Shown here: positions 1 through 63,003 of the stretch, one piece after another
Layout of the letters: each line of letters opens with the position of its first letter
Position numbering within the stretch: position 1 is the first letter of the stretch
Assembly: GCA_963693365.1 (NCBI GenBank)
Contig: CAVNZM010000017.1
Location: 2,843,527-2,907,526, forward strand
DNA length: 64,000 bases
Source of the DNA: Amoebidium appalachense
Taxonomy: Eukaryota > Protista > Ichthyosporea
Direction: 5' to 3'
The notes under the pieces: model-generated
The model's input: only the letters and a program-made list of their open reading frames with translations
What the model was told of the DNA's origin: nothing
Database searches by the model: none
Made by a program: the position numbers and the translations under genes

Positions 1-11598
<11,598 letters not shown>

Positions 11599-19404: not shown

Positions 19405-20808
19405 ATGTCACAAACAGGGCCCCACACGGGCTCCCATCCATCCCTCGCCTCTTGCTCAGGCCGCCTAGGTCCCACGGTGGTCGGTTCAGTCAGCCAGGAA
19501 GTAAACATCGCGTCACTTGAGCAGGCATGGAACGAAAGGGAGAGTGGATGCAAACCGTGCCAGAAAGTGAGCCTACAGAAGCAGGTCACCATAGTGGCAG
19601 TTTTTGTCATCGCCATCCAGGCCGTTTTCCCAACGATTTTCGTACTCGAAATTCTGGACATCGGGCACGTAAAATACACGACGTACACTTATCACGAACT
19701 CTTAGCACTTGCGATAACATGTATGGTCGTAACGGGGTTAGGTCTTATTTCCGTTGTTGCGCTCCTGTTCGTGTACCTTAAGAACAGGTCGAGGTTAAGG
19801 GGGACCGAGAGGATGCCACTCCCCTTCATGCTCATATCCAGTTTGGGATACATCGGCGCAATTTTTTTCACCGGGATCTTATTCCTGGGCCCGTACTGCA
19901 AGGTTATCCCCCCAAGTGTCTACAAGTCGCCTGCGTTTGCAATACCCATCCTCAGCTTTTTCAACGACATCATCCGCGGCGTTGCCATCTGCCCGCTGAC
20001 TGTCCTCATGATGAGAATTATTTTCATATATCTCGGCCGGCCACAATTGTTTCCCCCCCGGTGGCTTCAGCCGGGACACCCATCCCATTCGGGCAGTCCC
20101 CTTCTGGCGAAGCGTAAACATGCGTATGTGTTTCTCTTCATTCTTCTCATTCCAAACATCGTTTTGTACATCTGGGATATACCCAAGTTCCTCATCCTCG
20201 GGTTTGACGGCTTCAGTGATGAACTCCCCGGCACGTATATGTTGGCTGCGATATTTGCTTTTCACTGTGCGCTCGACATGTGGTCTGCGATCAGTCTTTT
20301 TCTGATGAGGGGATTCCTCAAGAAGTATGACCTTGATCAGTCGAAAATGCTCGTCCTCCTGTCCATGTTGTGGACAATTTATACTATCGTCGTGTACATC
20401 CGCACGTATACATCGCAGGGGAAGCACCTCTGGCCGCATCTACTTGTCGTCATGCTACTCGCTGTGCAGATTGTAGTGCTGCTGGTGTATTTCTTCATCA
20501 ACATACGCAACATGCTGATGAATAATGGCGGAAACACGAAGCGAAACAGCGAAAACATCAGTGTGTTGATGAACTCGACAAAAAGGCCGTTTCAAAGGGC
20601 CAGCGTGCACCAACAATTAAAAGACGCCGAAAAGAGAGAGAGAGAGTTGGAAGTGAGCAGAAAGTCGGGGGATGTGGGTGTAAGCGGCAAAGCGGTGGTA
20701 GAAAAACAGGGTTTTGAGGCAGAATTGAGGGAGGGTGTGTACGAGGTAGAGCAGGTGGAGGGGTGTGTGACGGAGGCTGTGGGTGAGTTGAGTAAAGTGG
20801 GGATATAA
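19405..20808 (+). CDS. Intronless multi-pass membrane protein (~467 aa, about 8 hydrophobic segments), family not recognised
   Basis: 1.4-kb repeat-free ORF from ATG 19405; hydrophobic stretches such as VTIVAVFVIAIQAVFPTIFVLEIL, LLALAITCMVVTGLGLISVVALLFVYL and LLVVMLLAVQIVVLLVYFFINI; charged C-terminal tail. Confidence 0.85.
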   Translation: MSQTGPHTGSHPSLASCSGRLGPTVVGSVSQEVNIASLEQAWNERESGCKPCQKVSLQKQVTIVAVFVIAIQAVFPTIFVLEILDIGHVKYTTYTYHELLALAITCMVVTGLGLISVVALLFVYLKNRSRLRGTERMPLPFMLISSLGYIGAIFFTGILFLGPYCKVIPPSVYKSPAFAIPILSFFNDIIRGVAICPLTVLMMRIIFIYLGRPQLFPPRWLQPGHPSHSGSPLLAKRKHAYVFLFILLIPNIVLYIWDIPKFLILGFDGFSDELPGTYMLAAIFAFHCALDMWSAISLFLMRGFLKKYDLDQSKMLVLLSMLWTIYTIVVYIRTYTSQGKHLWPHLLVVMLLAVQIVVLLVYFFINIRNMLMNNGGNTKRNSENISVLMNSTKRPFQRASVHQQLKDAEKRERELEVSRKSGDVGVSGKAVVEKQGFEAELREGVYEVEQVEGCVTEAVGELSKVGI

Positions 20809-49302: not shown

Positions 49303-49420
<118 letters not shown>

Positions 49421-50476: not shown

Positions 50477-50589
50477 AGGTGCACGTCCACTTACTTGTGT
50501 AAATGAGCAGGGTGGGCCCGGGTGGAGAAGGTGAGTAAGGCCACCTCTTTTCAAACTACGGAGGGAGATGGGGTAGTTGTTACCAAAAC

Positions 50590-51112
50590 AAAAGGCGAAG
50601 AGGCACCGAAAGTGTAAGCAAAAGAGAGAGAAAGAAGTTACCACAGGGGCATTTGGACAGTCTGTGTGTCTTGCTGCAAAATCGTCACCAACTGAGCAGC
50701 CCCCCGGAATAGGTATAGCATCGAGTGTGATAGATTTTCCGGGGAGAAATCTAGAACCGTTTCTGAGGGTGGCAAGCACACAGCTGGTTGTAGGGTGATG
50801 CACGAGGGGGTGGATTGCGGTAGTAAAGGTACTAGCAGCTCGGAGCCGCTGAGACCCCATGCGCATGCAGATGTACAGAATTTGGGTGCATCTTCTAGCC
50901 TTAGGGGCACGAAGACAGAGTTAGAGTGTGAGAAAGGGCCTGCCTTGACGGATACGGATGGAGAAAACTTTGGTAGATTAGCAAGGGAAAAGAATAGTAT
51001 GGGGGATGTTAGTGTAAGCAAGGTTTCCCCCTACTTCGGTAGTACCCGGGGGAAACGTAGCAAAGCCAGCTTTCCACAATGCCACCCTAGCACTTCAAAA
51101 GCAGGCAAGTGA
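50590..51112 (+). pseudogene. Inverted, degenerate copy of the Vsr gene's 3' tail (no nuclease domain)
   Basis: EVTTGAFGQSVCLAAKSSPTEQPPG...HADVQNLGASS...KTELECEKGPALTDTDGENFGR...SKVSPYFGSTRGKR matches 61010-60516 on minus; internal stop/frameshift. Confidence 0.85.
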
Positions 51113-51199
51113 ACTTAAGCATTAGTTTTTTTTGTGGTGTTGGGGTTGCTGATGGAGATAGTGGGGGTGAGGTGGGAGTATCCCCGGTTTTTTTTTTTT

Positions 51200-51278
<79 letters not shown>

Positions 51279-51654
51279 ACCCCTACGTATGTTATACGCC
51301 ACGTTTGTCTACGGAACACACTTTATTTATCTGGACCTGCCGTATGTAGACCCGTTGCGGAATATTAGCCGTACCCCACTGGTTGTTGTGTTTGGTCAGA
51401 GAAGAGTCCAGAAAAGGATGCTACTTATGTCACGTACTAATATACACAACTTATGTACTCTAACTCCGCAACCCTTAACACTACGTATACTTTGGTCAAG
51501 AGGAAGACATAAACACTACTTTCTCTACAAGGAAGCCCACTGGCAGATAAAACCATGTTTAAGCTTGCGTGCAATGCCTTCGAGAGTCATTTGCATAGTT
51601 TCCTGTCTTCAAGTGGTTTCTCTCGGGCTCCCAATCAGCCCCCCCCCCCCCCCC

Positions 51655-51687
<33 letters not shown>

Positions 51688-51777
51688 AGCCTTCGGACGC
51701 GTGCACTAGGCTGCCATTATATCATTACATTGTGAATGACTCGCACACCTTTCCCCATGACCGGAATTTCCTTGGAG

Positions 51778-52367
51778 CTAATTATGTCCGGCCGTCACGT
51801 GGACTTTGTGCCCGCCCTCGACTCCGGATTCCGGACGCCATGGGCGCGGCGGATCGATGCACCTCCAGCTTTCCCCCTCGTTACACACCAAACCCCAGTC
51901 ACAATCATCCTCGTCCACACACCGACTCCCGATTGGCTGATGGCTCGGATAGCCACAATGCTGTTCCCTGGGAGGCTTTGTCCTACAGGCCAAGCCCTCT
52001 ACGCAGTCACTGTTAAATCTACACTTGTCCCCATAACCGCCGCCTCCCCGTATAACACTGGCATGCCCTGGGAGGTTGGCCTTCGCTTTATAATTATTGA
52101 TCAATATGTCCGCCCTTTCCCGATTCCGGACGCCATGGAAACGGTGAAACGATGCACTTGTGTGTGCCCAGGTCACACTCCAGACCCCAGTCACAATCAC
52201 GGTCGTCCCTGCACGGCCGCGGTGCCCCGACGTTCTGGCCGTTGCTATGGTGGCGGGCCTCTGCGTCCACGTCACCATTAATTGTAGGGGTCCACCGAGC
52301 GGGGCACAATCGTCATGGCCATGCTGCTAGCGCATAGCAGCGCGCAGAGACAGTTTAGGCGCAGAAT
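51778..52367 (-). pseudogene. Secreted Cys-repeat peptide gene, disrupted copy 1 (three 4-Cys modules)
   Basis: Start codon ATG->ATT relative to copy 2; a 4-nt taat insertion creates a stop after DPYN; modules CRDDRDCDWGLECDLGTHKC, CRFNSDCVEGLACRTKPPREQHC, CVDEDDCDWGLVCNEGESWRC. Confidence 0.75.
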
Positions 52368-53181
52368 GGTGTGTATAGTGTGTATAGTCTATATATCTGT
52401 GTGTGTAGATAAACGCGCTCGAACTTGTGTGTGTTGTACTAAACGTGTCTGCCAGTGGCCGAGGTATTATAGACATGACCGCATTCCAATGGATAATTTT
52501 TTTCCCCGCGCCCCATTATGATTGGTCTGTGCGGCTGAGATGACGGTTTGTGGTTGTGATCGTTCACGGTGGTGAGTGCGGTGCCTACTGTACTGTATAG
52601 TTACCCCTCAGGAGAACACAAGCCCTCTCTCTATATGTCATTTCCGCAAACTGGCCCTGCCATATACATAGGCAGCCTGAGCAGCCGGCCCAACCCAACC
52701 CATTTCCAGCCCGAATGTGGGCATACTATCAAGCATACCTATCATAGAGGCAGCTGATTGGCTAATGTGCATTCCAGGGATTGCTTGGGAATCTAGGCTA
52801 CTCTAGTAGGCTGCAGCTGGACAACGGTCATCGGATGCGGCAGGCCCGTTCTTCACAACTTGGCGTCACAGTGATGCATCATTCACGGGCGCGGAATGTG
52901 ATCCCCCCCCCCCCCCCCCCCCCTCCGCCCTCCCTCCCCCTCCGCCGGCCGTCCCTCCCGCCCCATGGCCACTCACGATCCCCCCCCCCCCCCCCCCCCC
53001 CCCCGCGCCCCCTTTACACGAGTACCGTAAATGCACGTGCACGCACGCACGCACGCACGCCGGCCCGCACGCACACACGCACACACACACACAAACAAAC
53101 AAACACACACACACACACACACACACGTAGACGCACACGCACACGCACACGCACACACACACACACACATACACACACACA

Positions 53182-53352
<171 letters not shown>

Positions 53353-53769
53353 ACGGCCAACTAACTGTTTCGAAATTATGAAAAATTGGGGGCAATTTGA
53401 TTATTGTGATCATCATGCCGATGATGATCACGGTTCAGGTGTTCCTGTGCATATCCATTATCTGTGTGGCGAGGAATGCAACGGTATGTGTGTGTGGTGT
53501 GGGTGAGACGTGTATCTGCATGGGGGGGCATGGGGGGGAGGGGGGGAGGGAGGGAGGGGGGGGGGGGGGGAGATCCGGATCCGGACGCTGGGTGAATGTC
53601 GGATGTGGCTTCGATTTCCCTACACAGCCGGTGTACGATCAGAAACAGTGGTCCATATTGTAGTGCAGCAGAGCACGTTTTTTTCCTGATTAGCTTGAAG
53701 TCCTTCGGAGGCCTTTCCTTCATTACCAATTAATAGACCGAAAAAAGTCAATGCGTGTGTGCGTGTGTG

Positions 53770-53823
<54 letters not shown>

Positions 53824-53987
53824 TGTGTGTGCACGTGTGTGTGTATGTGCGTGTGTGTGTGTGTGTGTGTGTGTGCGTGCGTGTGCACGGTTTGTGTGTG
53901 TGTGTGTTTGTATGTATGTCTGTGTGCGTGTGTGTGTGTGTGTGTGTGAGCGTGTGTGTATGTGAGCGTGCGTGTGTGTGTCGTGGC

Positions 53988-54873: not shown

Positions 54874-55156
54874 GCCCACCCACCCCTGCGGCTGACTAGT
54901 AAATTCGGATGGGAAGTAGTAAATATAGACGTCCGCCCTGGTGGTACGTCCCCCTCCACCCCCCGGGAGGGGGGAGGGGGGCACCCACCCACCCTTTCGG
55001 CCGAGAAACGTGGGTCCCCCACCCCTCTCCCCCCTCCCCCACCCTGCCCCGCCCCTTCCGCCCCACTCAAAATCCCTCCTCCCCCCCCCCCCCCCCCCCC
55101 CCCGCCTCCCCCCATCCGGCCTACTCATTTATACGGATACCGCACTGAATGCACGT

Positions 55157-55244
<88 letters not shown>

Positions 55245-55736
55245 ACTTTTTTTGGTCTATTAATTGGTATTAAAATGAAGGAAATGCTTCCGAAGGACTT
55301 CAAGCTAGTTATAAGAAAAGCGTGCCCTGCTGCACTAACATATGGACTTTTTTTTTTGATTGTGCACTGGCTGTTTATAGGGAATCTTCGGAAGCCACAT
55401 CCGACATTCACCCAGCTTCCGGATCCGGATCCACCCCCCCCCCTCCCCCCCCTCCCCCCCCCCCCCCCCCCCCCCTTTTAGTCATGCCCCCCCATGCAGA
55501 TACACGTCTCACCCATACAACACACACACACATTCCCTGCCACACAGATAATGGATATGCACAGGAACACCTGCACGGTGATTATGAGCACGATAATTAT
55601 AACCAATTGCAAGTTGCCCCCAATAATAACTCATAAATAAGAAACAGTTGACCGTTGCCATGGCATCATGTGTGTGTGTGTGCGTGTGCGTGTGCGTGTG
55701 CGTGTGCGTGTGCGTGTGTGCGCGCGTGTGTGTGTT

Positions 55737-55839
<103 letters not shown>

Positions 55840-56567
55840 ATTTCATATGGCGTGTGTTCGTGCGTGCCGGGTGCGTACGTACGTGCGTGCGTGCGTGCGC
55901 GTGTGCACGTGCATTCAGTACGGTACTCGTGTAAATGAGTAGGCGGGACGGGGGGGGGGGGGGGGGGGGGATTTGAGTGGGGCCCGGGCGCGGGAGGGGG
56001 CGCCGGGGCGGGGTGCACGTGGTGGTGGTGGTGGTGGTGGTGGTGGTGGTGGGGGGGGGGGGGGGGGGAGGGGGGGGGAGGGAAGGGGAGGGGGGGGGGG
56101 GTTTCGGTAGGATATGTTATTATGGAGCAATTACTAATATTCAACGGACGTGACACAATGCACTGTGAGGTTGTGAAGAACAGGCCTGCATCAACGTGCC
56201 CGCTGTAACAATAGATTCGCAAGCAATGCCTGGAATGCACATTAGCCACTCCGAGCTGCCGCTCTGTATATTATAAAGTGTATTAGTCCATCTACGGTCA
56301 TGAGTCATGACTCCACCAATTTCGGGCTGAAAATCGGTTGGGTTGGGCCGGATGACAGGGTCTGTTTGCAGAAAAGGCATATAAGGAGAGGGTTTGTGGT
56401 CTCCTGAGGGGTAACTATACAGTACAGTAGGCCGCTCCATCTCTGCCACCTGCACCGCACTCACCACCGCGTACCTTGAACGATCCAAACCGTCATCTCG
56501 GCCGCACAGACCAATCATAATGGGCCGTGGAACAAATTTATCCATTGGAATGCGGTCCTGTCCATAC

Positions 56568-57632
56568 CACTTTGGATCTACTATTCAAAAATCGATCAAT
56601 TTTTTGCTTCGCTCCAACACCCGAGGTTGGCCGCCATAGGGCCGTCGTTTGTCGGGCTGCCTGGCAGCGGCTCCAGCTGCCCGACGTAGAAGCTACTTCT
56701 GGCAAAGACAAACCCCTTTACGTAACAATATTTGCTTTTTCCTCAAAATGCTACACAGATGCTTTTTATTATAGATGATAATTTCTATCGTCTTAGTTAT
56801 TTTGGGGTTTGCAGGCTTGTTGCGTTGGGCGTTTTTCTTAGCCATTCGTGATCATGACATGCACCGTAGTTAACATATGCACAAGTACTACGGGTGTTGA
56901 ACATTTACTGCCTGCATGGTGCGTTTCTGCCAAATGCACTCTCTGGGGGTAGAGTAGGCATGGCGTGTGAACATTATACACACGTACAGCGTGATCATTC
57001 AGTCCACCTTTTTGTGGAATGCCCTGTCAACCATACACATACAGACAACGGGAAGGCGTTTCGGTCGAAAACACATCATGACTGTTTTCCACACCGTCCA
57101 ACGCAACCAGCAGACTCTGACAGACACCCTGTTGTTCTTTTTGTAATAAATTACTTGTTGCATATATCGTCTCGTCAAGTATCCCTTGCATCCAAAGGTC
57201 ACTTGAGTGCAACGTGTTTTGTTGCACAGTGCAGTGTGCAGAGGTAGCACTAGTATCGGTACGAGCCCACTATGTACTGCCACTAACATGAAACAAGTCG
57301 AATTAGATGCTTGCTACTTAACTGTATTGTTTTTCTTTCTCTTGCTCACGGATAAAAGAAATGCAAACCCGGCAGCTCTCTTTCTATTCTAAGTCTTTGT
57401 ACATCTACCCGTCTGTTCTCTCCCTACACAAGATCTGCGCAGAAGCTGCTAATTATATCTAACGTTACGTTGTCTTGGGCTAGCACTAACCCGGACCGTG
57501 CGTGTTTGCAAGCCGCCACTGCACCAAAAGAGGCCGGTTAATATACTGTGCCAGTGTGTCGTTTGTTACACAGGGTAAGTGTGTGTGTGTATTGCGCATG
57601 TGTGTGTACTGTGTGTGACATTAAGATGAGAC

Positions 57633-57730
<98 letters not shown>

Positions 57731-57932
57731 GTGTGTGTGTGTGTGTTTGTGTGTGTGTGAGTGATTGTGTCACGTTTGCGTGTGTATTTGTGCACGCGTA
57801 CACTTAGGCGTCTGTATATGCTTGTGTGTGTGTGTGTGTGTGCCCTTGCGTGCACGTGTGTGTATGCACACGTCTGTGTGTGTATTCTTTGTGTGTGCGT
57901 ATATGTGTGTCAAGTGTGTGTGTGTGTGTGTT

Positions 57933-58007
<75 letters not shown>

Positions 58008-58076
58008 TTTGTGTGTGTTGCAATCCGGTGGGTGGGTGTTTGTTAGAGTATGTGTCGTGTGTTTGTCTGTGTGTGT

Positions 58077-58129
<53 letters not shown>

Positions 58130-58192
58130 TGTGTGTTTCAATCCCGTGGGTGGGTGTTTGTTAGAGTATGTGTCACGTGTTTGTCTGTATGT

Positions 58193-58237
<45 letters not shown>

Positions 58238-58688
58238 CGCGCGCACGCGCACGCACACGCGTTCAGGTGTGAGTGTATGTCGACGTCAGTGAAGGTGTAC
58301 GTTGTTATGCTCTCACGGTCCTCTTCCTAGCCTTCCCTCCCGGGACCCTCCTCCCCCCCCCCCCCCCCCCCCCCCCCCCTCCTCTTTCCCCCTCCCCTCG
58401 CCAGGGGCACCTTGTTGCCCCGCCTCTCTTGTAGGTGCCTAGGGAGGGAGGTGGTGGTGGGGGAGGGAGGAAGGGGGAGGAAGGAAGGCATAAGGAACTT
58501 CGGAAAGGGGGGGGGGGGGGGGGGGGGGGCTGGCGGGCAAAAGTGGGGTTTGGGTGGGGCGGCTGGGGAAGGTGGGGTCGATATGGAGAAGGTAACAGAT
58601 CTGTGTAAGAAGTGTTGAAGTGAGCGAGGTCAAGCTGCCTTGTTTACATGTAGTTATTTGTGTGTTTATGTGTGTGTGTGTGTCACGG

Positions 58689-58753
<65 letters not shown>

Positions 58754-58762
58754 CTCTCTCGT

Positions 58763-58804
<42 letters not shown>

Positions 58805-59662
58805 ACTCTGGTGTGTGTGTGTGTGTCTGTGTGTGTGTGTGTGTGTACGACATGTGTGTGTGCGTGTGTGCGTGTGTGCGTGTGTGCGTGTGTGTTTGTG
58901 TGTATTTTTGTTTGTATGTGTGTGTGTGTTTCTTACGGCCCGGTGTTCTTGCCTAAGTTAGTTGTGTAGAGGGGGGACTAGTACGGGCGGGCCTTCCCAT
59001 GCAGTCAGGGGCGGGCAGGTGGGTGGTTATGGGCAGTGTATAAGTTGAGCATGATGGGGGTGGGACAAACTTGAGCCTATGCCTGAACAACCAAGTCATG
59101 TTTATTTGGCTTCTTCTGAGTGGTAGCACCAAAACCCCACTGTTTGCACCTTCTAGAACGGGCGTACAGTGGGACAAGCTCCGGTTACCGTAACAGGTTT
59201 GAGGTGTAGTGGCTTGTTGTCGATGACACAAAAAAAGTTGCAGTGACCGGGTTAAAGTGGTCTCTGCATAACCTTTGGCTCTTATAGGTTCTTTTTTCAC
59301 TCTACTGGGCCACGTCACGGCGTCTTCTAACCATAGTTCCGTGAACCACACACCATACCACCACGTCCACAGATCTAGACTCCGGAGGTAGACTGCAGCT
59401 CTACTGATGAGCGGGCATGTGCGTGCGGGGCTTTTGATTGTTTAACCAATATTTTAAACTGTTGTTATTTGTGTCATATACAATTACTCACTACTCTAAA
59501 AGTGCGCTTATACTAGCTTAAAGTAGGTTAGATAGAGTCGCTTCAGTTCTTGTAGGTGTTGTAAGTTTCGCACGGAAAACGCGGCTGCGCAGTCTGCACA
59601 CGGGAAGGCCCTATGGCTCCAGAGCCGCATTCCACAGATCGGCCTATTATAGATCCAAAGTG
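56568..59662. mobile_element. 3.1-kb TIR DNA transposon derivative with an 8-bp TSD; possible Merlin/IS1595 transposase remnant
   Basis: TIR cactttggatcta (56568-56580) / tagatccaaagtg (59650-59662); TSD gtccatac at 56560-56567 and 59663-59670; the empty site is visible in the other arm (~52465-52480). The peptide YTHVQRDHSVHLFVECPVNHTHTDNGKAFRSK (~56975-57070, +) resembles the ISXO2-like Y.H..V.HS..FV.P....HT..IE..W motif. Confidence 0.85.
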
Positions 59663-59753
59663 GTCCATACCTCGGTCACTGGCAGACGATTCGGTCCAGT
59701 TCGAGTTCGAGCGCTTTTACGTACACACTCACATATATACACTATAACACACC

Positions 59754-60050
59754 ATGCTGCGCCTAACCTGTCTCTGCGCGCTGCTATGCGCTAGCAGCAT
59801 GGCCATGACGATTGTGCCCCGCTCGGTGGACCCCTACAATGGTGACGTGGACGCAAAGGCCCACCATAGCAACGGCCAGAACGTCGGGGCACCGCGGCCG
59901 TGCAGGGACGACCGTGATTGTGATCACCAGGAATCTGGCGTGTGACCTGGACACACACAAGTGCATCATTTCACCGTTTCCATGGCGTCCGGAATCGGGA
60001 GAGGGCGGACATATGGGGAAAGGTGTGCTTGTCATTAAAAATGTAATATT
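59754..60050 (+). pseudogene. Secreted Cys-repeat peptide gene, copy 2 (signal peptide intact, frameshift in module 1, modules 2-3 deleted)
   Basis: MLRLTCLCALLCASSMAMTIVPRSVDPYNGDVDAKAHHSNGQNVGAPRPCRDDRDCD, then a frameshift; continues NLACDLDTHKCIISPFPWRPESGEGGH in another frame. Confidence 0.75.
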
Positions 60051-60083
60051 ATATTGGAAGCCTAGTCTACGTCCGGGGGGAAA

Positions 60084-60115
<32 letters not shown>

Positions 60116-60359
60116 GGGCCTGATTGAGAGAGAGAGAGAGAGAGAGACCACAAGACAGGAAACTATGCAAAATGACTAGGCGCAAGTAAATGCATGATTT
60201 ATCTGCCAGCGGGCTTCCTTGTAGAGAGATGGTGTGTATGTCTTCTATTCTAATAGAATGGTGTGTATGTCTAATATTCCGGAACGGGTCTAGATACGGC
60301 GGGTCCAGATAAATAAAGGTGTTTCGTGGACAAACTTGGAGTAAAATATACGTAGGGGT

Positions 60360-60407
<48 letters not shown>

Positions 60408-60834
60408 ACCCAACAACAACAACAAAAAAAAAACCAAAAAAAAGCGGGGGTACTCCCACCTCAGCCCAACTACCTCCATCATCAACCCCAACACCACAAA
60501 AACTTTGAACAGTTTTCAAGTGCCTGCTTTGGAAGTGCTAGGGCGGCGAGATGGAAAGCTGGCTTTGATACGTTTCCCCCGGGTACTACCGAAGTAGGGG
60601 GAAACCTTGCTTACACTAACATCCTCCATACCATCCTTTTCCCTTGCAAACCTACCAAAGTTTTCTCCATCCGTATCCGTCAAGGCAGGCCCCTTCTCAC
60701 ACTCTAGCTCTGTCTTTACGCCCCTAGAAGATGCACCCAAATTCTGTACATCTGCATGCGTATGGGGTCTCTGCTCTGAGCTGCTACCTTGAACTTCACT
60801 ACCGCAATCAACCCCATCGTGCATAATTCCACAA

Positions 60835-61872
60835 CTAGCTGTGTGTCTGACCCCTTGTTCTAGATTTCTCCCCCGGTTCATCAATCACACTCGATGCTAA
60901 ACTTTTTCCGGGGGGTTGTTCAGTTGGCGACGAGTTCGCAGCTAGACGCGCAGACCGCCGAAACACATCCGTCGTGACTCCTTTCCCTCTCCTTTGCTTA
61001 CACGCTTTAGGCTTCTCTTCGCCTCCTGTTTTGATAGCAACGACCCCAACTCCCTCCGTATTTTGAAAAGAGGCAAAGCTGGCGGTGTGTATGTGTTTTG
61101 CTTTCTGCTCGCCGTTCCCTTTTTGCACGGCGAAAAGTTCCAACCTCGGCCGCCGCTTGACCTTGCTCGGTTGCGTGTCGCCTGCAACTTCATGTTTGGT
61201 TTGTTCTTGCTTTCGCTGGCGCTTAGCGGACATAGAGGGTATAAGCAAATCCGTGCGTCGCTTTGAAGGTGTTGAAAGGAAGAACGGTGAACGGTCAGGC
61301 ACAGAAACGTTTTGCTTTTCACTCCTTGGTGCTTCACCTATTGTTTCTGAGCCCTCCCATGTTTCGGCGATCTCTGGCCGAGATGGTGGGAGTTTGGGGG
61401 CCTTGGGAAGAATTCTTTGTAGGCGCTCCGTTGCCGTAACTTCATTCAACAACTCACACTCCCAAAAAACATGTACCTTCCACCCGAGTGCCGTTAGCTC
61501 GCTTACATTTTCAGCATCTCGCTGCGTGTTCCTGGCGAACTTCCTCTCCCAAAACTCCACGTTCGTTGACGGATGCGTACACTTCTTACACCCCGCTTCC
61601 CTGCATGTTTCAATATCCGCGTGGTGTCTGTGCCAAAAGCATCCGTTCACAAACAGAACGGCTTGACACGCTTCGAGGACTATGTCTGGGCTGCCGGGAA
61701 GTTCACGGCAGTTATACTCTGCCAGGGATTCACACCCCCATCCTATGTTTGTCAGCAGTTTTCGTAGCTTTAGTTCTGGTCGGGTGGCTGTCTGGGGTAT
61801 CTTGCTCATCACGTAGCTGCGCTGCTCTGGTGTGAGTTTCTCCCCAACCCGTGGACGTTTCTTCGCACCCAT
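60835..61872 (-). CDS. vsr: Vsr (very short patch repair) G:T mismatch endonuclease with a long disordered C-terminal tail; probably extends to 60516
   Basis: Vsr motifs in order: LTPEQRSYVMSKI, TRPELKLRKLL, LPGSPDIV, FVNGCFWHRH, P.TNVEFWERKFARNTQRD, LGWKVHVFWECEL. Intronless; N-terminal KKRPR. Removing one base from the C5 run at 60870-60874 joins this ORF to the 60884-60516 ORF. Confidence 0.93.
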   Translation of the reverse strand: MGAKKRPRVGEKLTPEQRSYVMSKIPQTATRPELKLRKLLTNIGWGCESLAEYNCRELPGSPDIVLEACQAVLFVNGCFWHRHHADIETCREAGCKKCTHPSTNVEFWERKFARNTQRDAENVSELTALGWKVHVFWECELLNEVTATERLQRILPKAPKLPPSRPEIAETWEGSETIGEAPRSEKQNVSVPDRSPFFLSTPSKRRTDLLIPSMSAKRQRKQEQTKHEVAGDTQPSKVKRRPRLELFAVQKGNGEQKAKHIHTASFASFQNTEGVGVVAIKTGGEEKPKACKQRRGKGVTTDVFRRSARLAANSSPTEQPPGKSLASSVIDEPGEKSRTRGQTHS

Positions 61873-62159
61873 GTTCACAAAAAAAATCGGAACTCAAACG
61901 GTAAAAGTTTTAGAGGAGGAGGCAGTCTATTCTCATCACCACATCTACCGAAACCAATGTACGTATAGAAAAGACACCCTAAAAGAAAACGTTCTTTCCG
62001 AGGGCAAACTGAGGCTACTGTGACCCTGTTCCCGGAACCCACTTGTCTTTCTCTGAGCCCCTAATCGTAGACTATTACTTCATGTACGTGTTTTTGATTG
62101 TAGTGTGGATGTCGGCAATACTTATTTGGAGAAGTGTGACGTTATGCAACGTAGACAAA

Positions 62160-62877
62160 ATGGCGCCAACTTGTCGAGAGGCACGAGAAAGCCTCGGTCA
62201 TGAGAAGAAAGAAACTTTGCAGACATGCATATGGGAAGAAACTTTGCAGACATGTATATGGGATGGGAAAGAAGCAATCAACTCAAGAAGAAAATCCAAG
62301 AAAAGATTACGTTCAATAGCTGGCGATATGTCAGACACACCTTGCACGGAGAATGACGGTGAGAAACCACCGGATATTGTAGCAGAGAATTCTTTACACG
62401 TTGCTGCGATGGGGCAACAAGATCAATTAGGGTCTAGTGGTAGTTTCATTGTTCAGAAAATGTTGAATAGCGAAGGGGGACTTCAAACGGAAGGTGTCAA
62501 AGAAATTAACTTCATTGATGAGTCTGCAGGTGTGAATGTTGATAGATCTGGCGACACACGGGTAGAAGGGGAAAAAGTCGCACCGGAGGAGGGTGTGCCG
62601 TTGCAACGTGAAACGAACCCTAGTGGTTCCGAAGGGAGCGGCGGGGGAACAGATGGAAATGTAGTAGCTACGAATGTTCTGAATGGAAGGGATAATGATA
62701 ATGTCGAGGTTGAAAATGCTGGCAAAGAGAACGAAGCGGTTGGTAACATGGGTGAGATTGTGAACGAGCAGGAGACTGGGGGACCTGTGCGTCTAACGCG
62801 AAAACAGAAGAGGAAACTAGACAAGAAACGGAGGAGGAGGCTGGCTGCACTAGCACGGGAACAAGAAGAAAGAGAGA
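62160..62877 (+). CDS. First exon of an unidentified gene divergent from vsr (acidic disordered region, basic NLS-like segment)
   Basis: Repeat-free ORF from ATG 62160 to donor |gtaagc at 62878; RKQKRKLDKKRRRR; in-frame 27-bp duplication (ETLQTCIW x2); downstream exons unresolved. Confidence 0.65.
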
Positions 62878-63003
62878 GTAAGCTCACCTTTCCTTCTATT
62901 AATGTTTTCATATGTACATGCGCCTGTCTGCTTTGGCATGGGTTTCAGTGTATAGACGGTTTTTGTTTGTGTGTGAGTGTATCGGGTTGTGTCCGTGTGA
63001 CTG

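Follow-up and report, generated by a model that had tools for sequence, protein, structure and literature searches.

The 64,000-nucleotide stretch of ichthyosporean DNA analysed here (the window) carries an intronless gene for a bacterial-type Vsr endonuclease, and this gene is genuinely chromosomal in its protist host. The encoded protein is a bona fide member of the Vsr family by all the sequence and fold tests applied, and it bears outside its nuclease domain three kinds of short motif known from nuclear proteins. We give even chances to the candidate function that these motifs suggest, namely that of a domesticated nuclear Vsr docking on chromatin and on MLH1 and nicking G:T mismatches left by deaminated 5-methylcytosine (5mC).

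The nuclease domain belongs to the Vsr family

The Vsr endonuclease domain spans aa 11-155 (61408..61842, minus strand), as delimited by Pfam, TIGR00632, an alignment of homologues and a structure match. In profile searches it exceeds the cut-offs of both family models, scoring 69.4 bits against Pfam Vsr (PF03852; cut-off 27) and 102.3 bits against TIGR00632 (cut-off 97.85), and its sequence matches E. coli Vsr (1CW0) with E=4e-20. The AlphaFold2 model is confident across the domain and superimposes on 1CW0 (E=2e-10, rmsd 1.7); a structure search with this model at E<=0.001 returned 2 matches only, 1cw0 and 1vsr.

The active site of E. coli Vsr is formed by E25, D51, H64, H69 and D97 (PMC12907096; PMC2677866), which align here with E33, D63, N76, H81 and D119, and the intercalating residues F67 and W68 correspond to F79 and W80, with W108 also present (alignment and PMC2677866). 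Asparagine is the commonest residue at the position of E. coli H64, being found in 87 of the 109 homologues. D63, G77, C78, W80, H83, W108, K111, W137 and C139 are conserved in 109/109 homologues, E33 in 107, H81 and D119 in 108 each, N115 in 97 and C95 in 90, and the query keeps all 12 columns that are invariant in an alignment of 113 sequences. Among these residues, C78, H83, C95 and C139 occupy the Cys, His, Cys, Cys zinc positions of E. coli Vsr, and K111 and N115 presumably correspond to the mismatch-recognition residues K89 and N93 of the E. coli enzyme. Two private insertions interrupt the domain, at aa 46-49 and aa 85-93; the latter places nine residues between H83 and C95, giving a spacing of 25 here versus 16 in 223 of 289 sequences. 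The residues support an intact Vsr active site, for which G:T nicking is predicted. Profiles, alignment and fold alike uphold the original prediction of a full Vsr motif set, including a catalytic-type PD, CFWHxH and the zinc ligands.

Corrected reading frame of the gene

The coding sequence lies on the minus strand at 60516..61872, starting with an ATG at 61872 that is followed by KKRPR and then by the Vsr domain. In the window as assembled, the frame opened at 61872 has its stop at 60835 and is 345 aa long; it does not include KVSPYF, which is found in a different frame. Base 60870, within a G/C run, is however missing from all seven runs that cover it (X2, X3, X4, X5, X6, X7 and X11), in each case from the only contig that the run has there. 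The frame break at 60870 is therefore an assembly error in the G run, and the true open reading frame, with this extra base discounted, encodes 451 aa. Contigs of 8 of the 24 listed runs were compared with the window, the eighth, X12, lacking depth at 60870. The equivalent position in a duplicated fragment of the tail also shows four G's. The assembly further differs from the 7 runs covering 60550, a difference that results in S441C. An intron was rejected as an explanation for the broken frame, since none of the 8 runs has a contig with an intron joint within the gene, in keeping with the intronless gene originally described. The claim that a single reading frame includes KVSPYF thus fails for the window as assembled and holds after correction with the run contigs. 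The motifs named from the sequence were all found in place: KKRPR at 61863-61849, PD (D63), GCFWHRH (aa 77-83), WEC (aa 137-139), RSPFF at 61293-61279 and KVSPYF at 60608-60591.

Run X12, from a related organism (organism C), differs from the gene by M22I at an invariant position, by S164P and by two silent changes. It also shows a +1 insertion at 61603 in its sole contig there (depth 10.9) and a mixed +1 at 61511, each duplicating one base. These insertions may reflect a broken allele or sequencing error; should they be genuine, a close relative has a broken version of the gene.

Chromosomal setting

The Vsr gene stands head-to-head, across a short gap, with a divergent host gene whose first exon (62188..62877, plus strand), defined from run contigs, ends at a GT donor at 62878. 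This exon encodes an acidic low-complexity region and a basic cluster, with no Pfam or NCBIfam match. Single DNA contigs from runs X2 and X3, which belong to two studies, extend from 60731 past 62900 and join the Vsr domain to the host exon, and a contig of X12 bridges 61512-62419. Because single DNA contigs join the Vsr domain to a spliced host exon, contamination is excluded, and the eukaryotic chromosomal location put forward for the gene is borne out by independent DNA. The GC content of the gene (0.52-0.53) is like that of the window. Its location had been described as lying among spliceosomal genes, which is accurate in that the neighbours have spliceosomal introns (the myosin V exons and the GT donor at 62878), but no gene for a spliceosome component was seen.

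At the other end of the window, Pfam and protein matches identify a myosin V gene with microsatellite-rich introns (1960-9299, minus strand). Its exon at 6456-6812 shows 85% identity with Ichthyophonus and 71% with Sphaeroforma and Creolimax, against at most 68% for animals among the matches listed; two matches of higher or similar bit score are ostracod proteins with 50-58% identity. The exon places the host in Ichthyosporea.

Part of the gene has been duplicated together with its flanks. An inverted segmental duplication pairs 50544-53850 (plus strand) with 55151-61073 (minus strand) in blocks that are 72-86% identical, and sequence alignment showed that the tail's final 185 codons recur within it as an inverted fragment, frameshifted and without a Vsr domain (50544..51113, plus strand; 82% identical). 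A degenerate Vsr domain in this fragment was sought with tblastn and rejected. Just ahead of the left copy lie a (GT)n repeat and, near 50479, a splice-acceptor-like site. Both duplicated blocks, at 51781-52326 (minus strand) and 59667-60014, contain cysteine-rich short repeats of the form C-x-x-D-x-D-C-x-x-G-L-x-C with a sub-threshold match to Pfam Toxin_12 (E=0.07), possibly belonging to a secreted protein. Elsewhere, 19405-20805 (plus strand) holds an intronless 467-aa ORF for a multi-pass membrane protein with a weak, below cut-off similarity to class C GPCR-like 7tm_3 (E=3e-4). Low-complexity sequence makes up 26,349 of the 64,000 bases of the window and comprises CA and CT tracts together with very long runs of G/C, of which one exceeds 100 bases near 49305-49417.

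Transcription

Contigs from runs X4, X5, X6 and X7 leave the window at 62877, directly before GTAAG, and continue in an identical stretch of 30 letters absent from the window, which indicates a splice from 62877 to an exon beyond 64000; four DNA-like runs have no such contig end. The splicing marks X4, X5, X6 and X7, from two studies, as RNA-like, a status judged from the splicing itself, the run labels being guesses. All four contain the whole Vsr ORF unspliced. The longest unspliced contig, in X5, covers 60424..62034 (minus strand, inferred from the ORF), and a single contig of X6 (60450-62010) likewise spans the ORF. The RNA-like contigs end at 62010, 62021 and 62034 in two studies, with a thin X4 contig reaching 62156, and contig cover is lacking at 62011-62187 in X6, for the alleles of the duplicated fragment in X4-X7 and over stretches of X12, gaps on which no conclusion was based; the ends at 62010-62034 hint weakly at where the 5' end of the gene lies. 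Transcription of the Vsr gene, with the strand taken from the ORF, is supported by its presence in these spliced-RNA-like runs.

Relatives and origin of the gene

The nearest relatives of the protein are bacterial, which, together with the family cut-offs exceeded, agrees with its first description as a bacterial-type Vsr. The named homologues are all prokaryotic, most matches carrying no name, and identity to relatives is at most 54% among the matches listed, with an end branch of 1.0 changes per column. In a tree of 156 rows, built by a quick method from a set leaving out 50 of 80 viral loci and most protein hits, the query was placed within prokaryotic Vsr, beside the Desulfobacula-labelled P0035 and P0039 (SH-aLRT 80), in no well-supported set, so that no donor can be named. 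These data support a bacterial-family origin and horizontal acquisition.

Three sets of hits (33 in one search, the best 120 from 168 in a second and the best 150 from 7162 in a third) contained no eukaryotic relative and no match to the tail, and a word-limited search of the ichthyosporean proteomes of the same database returned no orthologue, so the gene may be young or private to its lineage. A search of the ESM Atlas with the tail excluded matched Vsr clusters only, at 0.87. A giant-virus donor was considered and found to be without support: in an alignment scan of 467 of 557 stretches from viral contigs, the best 80 were all 34-47% identical, no closer than bacteria, and of 2 pattern matches in a single-protein scan of viral contigs neither was confirmed.

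Bacterial Dcm-Vsr systems combine the nuclease with a cytosine methyltransferase, and the C5 methyltransferase motif PCQx[FWY]S is found in 24 of 80 bacterial loci at no more than 2 kb from Vsr and in 34 of 80 viral loci at no more than 3 kb. By contrast, none was found in the six frames of the 64-kb window, where introns could hide one, and the gene is not part of a Dcm-Vsr cassette. Among prokaryotic-looking proteins we observed Vsr fusions to PF13563, which we take to be 2'-5' RNA ligase-like (P0001, P0012 and P0019), to PF03167, presumably uracil-DNA glycosylase (P0014, P0017, P0018, P0020 and P0027), and to C5 methyltransferase (P0008 and P0150).

Nuclear-type motifs outside the nuclease domain

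The basic cluster KKRPR (61849..61863, minus strand), a candidate nuclear localisation signal, precedes the domain, and only 5 of the 109 bacterial homologues have residues aligned to this region. Three further motifs are found on the same strand in the C-terminal tail. RSPFF (aa 194-198; 61279..61293) fits the MIP-box pattern [RK]-S-x-[YF]-F, KVSPYF (aa 422-427; 60591..60608) is a second MIP-box-type motif, and RRSARLAA (aa 305-312; 60937..60960) resembles the nucleosome acidic-patch motif of HMGN proteins, fitting RRS[AS]R[LI] with its three arginines. The last of these had been overlooked in the original prediction, and its putative role strengthens the case for domestication. In 200,000 shuffles of the 286-aa tail, two Sx[YF]F motifs arose with P=5.7e-4 and two SP[YF]F motifs in none. 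RRSxRL gave P=7.6e-4 by shuffling and KxSP[YF]F P=2.7e-4. All these values are for patterns chosen after inspection of the sequence. The MIP-type motifs first noticed in the tail are hence present and non-random, and three kinds of nuclear motif would be hard to get by chance on one bacterial enzyme.

Two reports give Sx(Y/F)F, with the consensus (R/K)SK(Y/F)F, as the core by which MIP boxes bind the C-terminal domain of MLH1 at its S2 site, and FAN1 binds this site via K124-x-S126-P-Y128-F129 (PMC13473659, PMC8424649), a K-x-S-P-Y-F pattern that KVSPYF reproduces. VSPYF-like motifs had been ascribed to MBD4-family glycosylases, an attribution that did not hold: the closest proven match is the SPYF of FAN1, whereas the MLH1 motif of human MBD4 is given as SLYFSS (PMC6838969), and a literature search for the string VSPYF did not find it. 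The HMGN nucleosome motif RRSARLSA and RRSARIAT of yeast Dot5 are described as binding the acidic patch (PMC12487698, PMC13347269).

The regions around the two MIP-type boxes share 10 of 19 residues, 8 of these through different codons, and 27 of 57 bases; sharing of residues through different codons points to selection on the peptide, with a modest repeat score that 51 of 1500 shuffles equalled (P=0.034). Comparison of the tail with its duplicated fragment over 110 codons gave 8 changes in codons that keep their residue against 37 in codons that alter it, with no signal of purifying selection; the frameshifted duplicate keeps KVSPYF, and its HMGN-like motif is destroyed. In the structural model pLDDT falls below 50 at aa 196-214, the tail has no alignment depth, and KVSPYF lies outside the model.

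Candidate function and alternatives

In the proposed mechanism, KKRPR would import the enzyme into the nucleus, RRSARLAA would anchor it at the nucleosome acidic patch, and RSPFF and KVSPYF would dock on the C-terminal domain of MLH1 at its S2 site. The Vsr domain would then nick 5' of the mismatched T in G:T pairs arising from deaminated 5mC, as E. coli Vsr nicks 5' of a mismatched T, and the nick would single out the T strand, a short stretch of which would be excised and resynthesised by host MutL-alpha, exonuclease and polymerase. The task of MBD4 and TDG would in this way be done by nicking instead of base removal. E. coli Vsr binds the MutL N-terminal domain, so MIP docking is without precedent and would be a new interface, in which eukaryotic peptide docking may replace the bacterial contact. 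Some bacterial Vsr enzymes cut G:T in all contexts (PMC6116569), which makes a CpG substrate plausible. Counting against the proposal, a G:T nickase that cut the T strand every time, whatever the sequence context, could cause mutations where replication errors occur. Of the originally proposed rewiring of an acquired Vsr for host repair, the data support the bacterial origin, the place in the chromosome, transcription, the integrity of the active site and MIP-type motifs that are not random; nuclear import, MLH1 binding, G:T nicking and a methylated host genome are predicted.

Several other explanations compete with a chromatin- and MLH1-docking nickase. It is unlikely that the protein is an active domesticated nuclear nuclease working without MLH1, its motifs being chance occurrences or CDK-type phosphorylation sites, or that its target is a different lesion, for example G:U or a recombination intermediate. 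Such an enzyme is compatible with reports that Vsr cleaves without accessory proteins (PMC6116569), with the S-P that opens both boxes and with the private insertions at aa 46-49 and aa 85-93, which could alter specificity, but two SP[YF]F motifs in 0 of 200,000 shuffles argue against chance, and the proven box of FAN1 is likewise an S-P phosphosite. The gene might instead be a transferred passenger, transcribed, dispensable and decaying, with a tail taken from a host gene or from non-coding DNA. The failure to find an orthologue (33 hits, best 120 of 168, best 150 of 7162), the apparent M22I and frameshift in organism C, the lack of introns and the tail comparison without a purifying signal all fit this explanation; it is nonetheless rather unlikely given that all invariant residues are kept despite identity of at most 54% among the matches listed and an end branch of 1.0, that the frame stays open for 451 codons with three kinds of nuclear motif, and that transcription is seen in two studies.

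A FAN1-like modulator of mismatch repair, whose two boxes would occupy the MLH1 S2 site in competition with MSH3 or EXO1 and so tune repair at abundant microsatellites, seems distinctly improbable, since a pure competitor would not need the mismatch-nicking core that is fully kept here. In its favour, an excess of E. coli Vsr, which competes for MutL with MutH, is mutagenic, low-complexity sequence takes up 26,349 of the 64,000 window bases, and the SPYF of FAN1 competes with MSH3 for MLH1 (PMC13473659, PMC8424649). Bacterial contamination or a chimeric assembly, to which the purely prokaryotic named homologues and the two assembly errors within the gene might point, is very improbable indeed: it is already refuted by the independent DNA contigs in which the domain is linked with a spliced exon of the host, and it also conflicts with the presence of the gene in spliced-RNA-like runs, with a GC content matching that of the window and with the duplication of part of the gene along with its host flanks.

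Methylation context

Amoebidium is credited in PMC11244446 with 18 DNMTs and with CG methylation of 40%, a level that reaches about 70% at CGC/GCG, and the other sequenced ichthyosporeans with no DNA methyltransferases. A term search of the main text and two supplements of that paper found no mention of Vsr, MBD4 or mismatch, and a term search of another methylation paper (PMC12344493) no report of a eukaryotic Vsr. The non-repetitive part of the window has an observed/expected ratio of 0.80 for CpG and 0.88 for CGC. Between four duplicated blocks, changes of the C-to-T type affect 11 of the 31 CGC/GCG sites and 7 of the 41 remaining CpG sites, a contrast that is not significant (P=0.066 one-sided, 0.10 two-sided; binomial 0.065), and for 9 of the 11 changed CGC/GCG sites the loss is in the broken copy. 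This weak deamination footprint is suggestive of a methylated host.

Comparison with known systems

The protein shares with E. coli Vsr (PF03852, TIGR00632, 1CW0, 1VSR) the fold and the active-site, intercalating and zinc positions, and differs from it in residing on a eukaryotic nuclear chromosome, in its N-terminal basic cluster and in a tail of about 290 aa with MIP-type and HMGN-like motifs; where the E. coli enzyme contacts the MutL N-terminal domain, contact through MIP-type boxes is predicted here. Human FAN1 likewise joins a nuclease to an arm with K-x-S-P-Y-F, disordered in FAN1 and possibly so here, but its nuclease domain and substrate are unrelated, and it has one MIP and a MIM in place of the two candidate MIP-type boxes. 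With MBD4 the protein has in common the proposed deaminated-5mC task and an MLH1-binding motif in a linker (here a candidate). MBD4 is however a glycosylase and not a predicted nickase, no sequence relation was found (Pfam reports Vsr only), and a putative HMGN-like motif would serve chromatin targeting instead of an MBD. RRSARLAA itself compares with RRSARLSA of HMGN, RRSSRLTS of Dsup and RRSARIAT of yeast Dot5, the putative motif being attached here to a bacterial nuclease.

The Vsr fold also recurs in Vsr-like homing endonucleases (I-Bth0305I) and in the pPolB2 polymerases of Polintons, which carry a VSR domain (10.1101/2023.08.22.554363). These are distant insertions or homing enzymes without the mismatch-recognition positions (PMC2677866), in contrast to the stand-alone, cut-off-passing Vsr found here in host sequence. 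Literature searches, with subscription journals outside their coverage, found no report of a stand-alone eukaryotic Vsr.

Eukaryotes are thought to mend deaminated 5mC with glycosylases, nicking by Vsr being the bacterial solution. It is conceivable, though we lean somewhat against it, that very-short-patch repair was imported and rewired with an import signal, a nucleosome anchor and two MLH1 boxes, and that, beside or in place of MBD4 and TDG, it helps this lineage to keep the heavy methylation that its relatives lost. A chromatin-adapted G:T nickase, if real, would be a useful tool. If it works in the nucleus, the enzyme would provide a third route for the repair of deaminated 5mC; if true, the proposal would show how short motifs can plug a transferred enzyme into host machines, and would open to test the question of why heavy CG methylation persists in one ichthyosporean lineage when others lost it.
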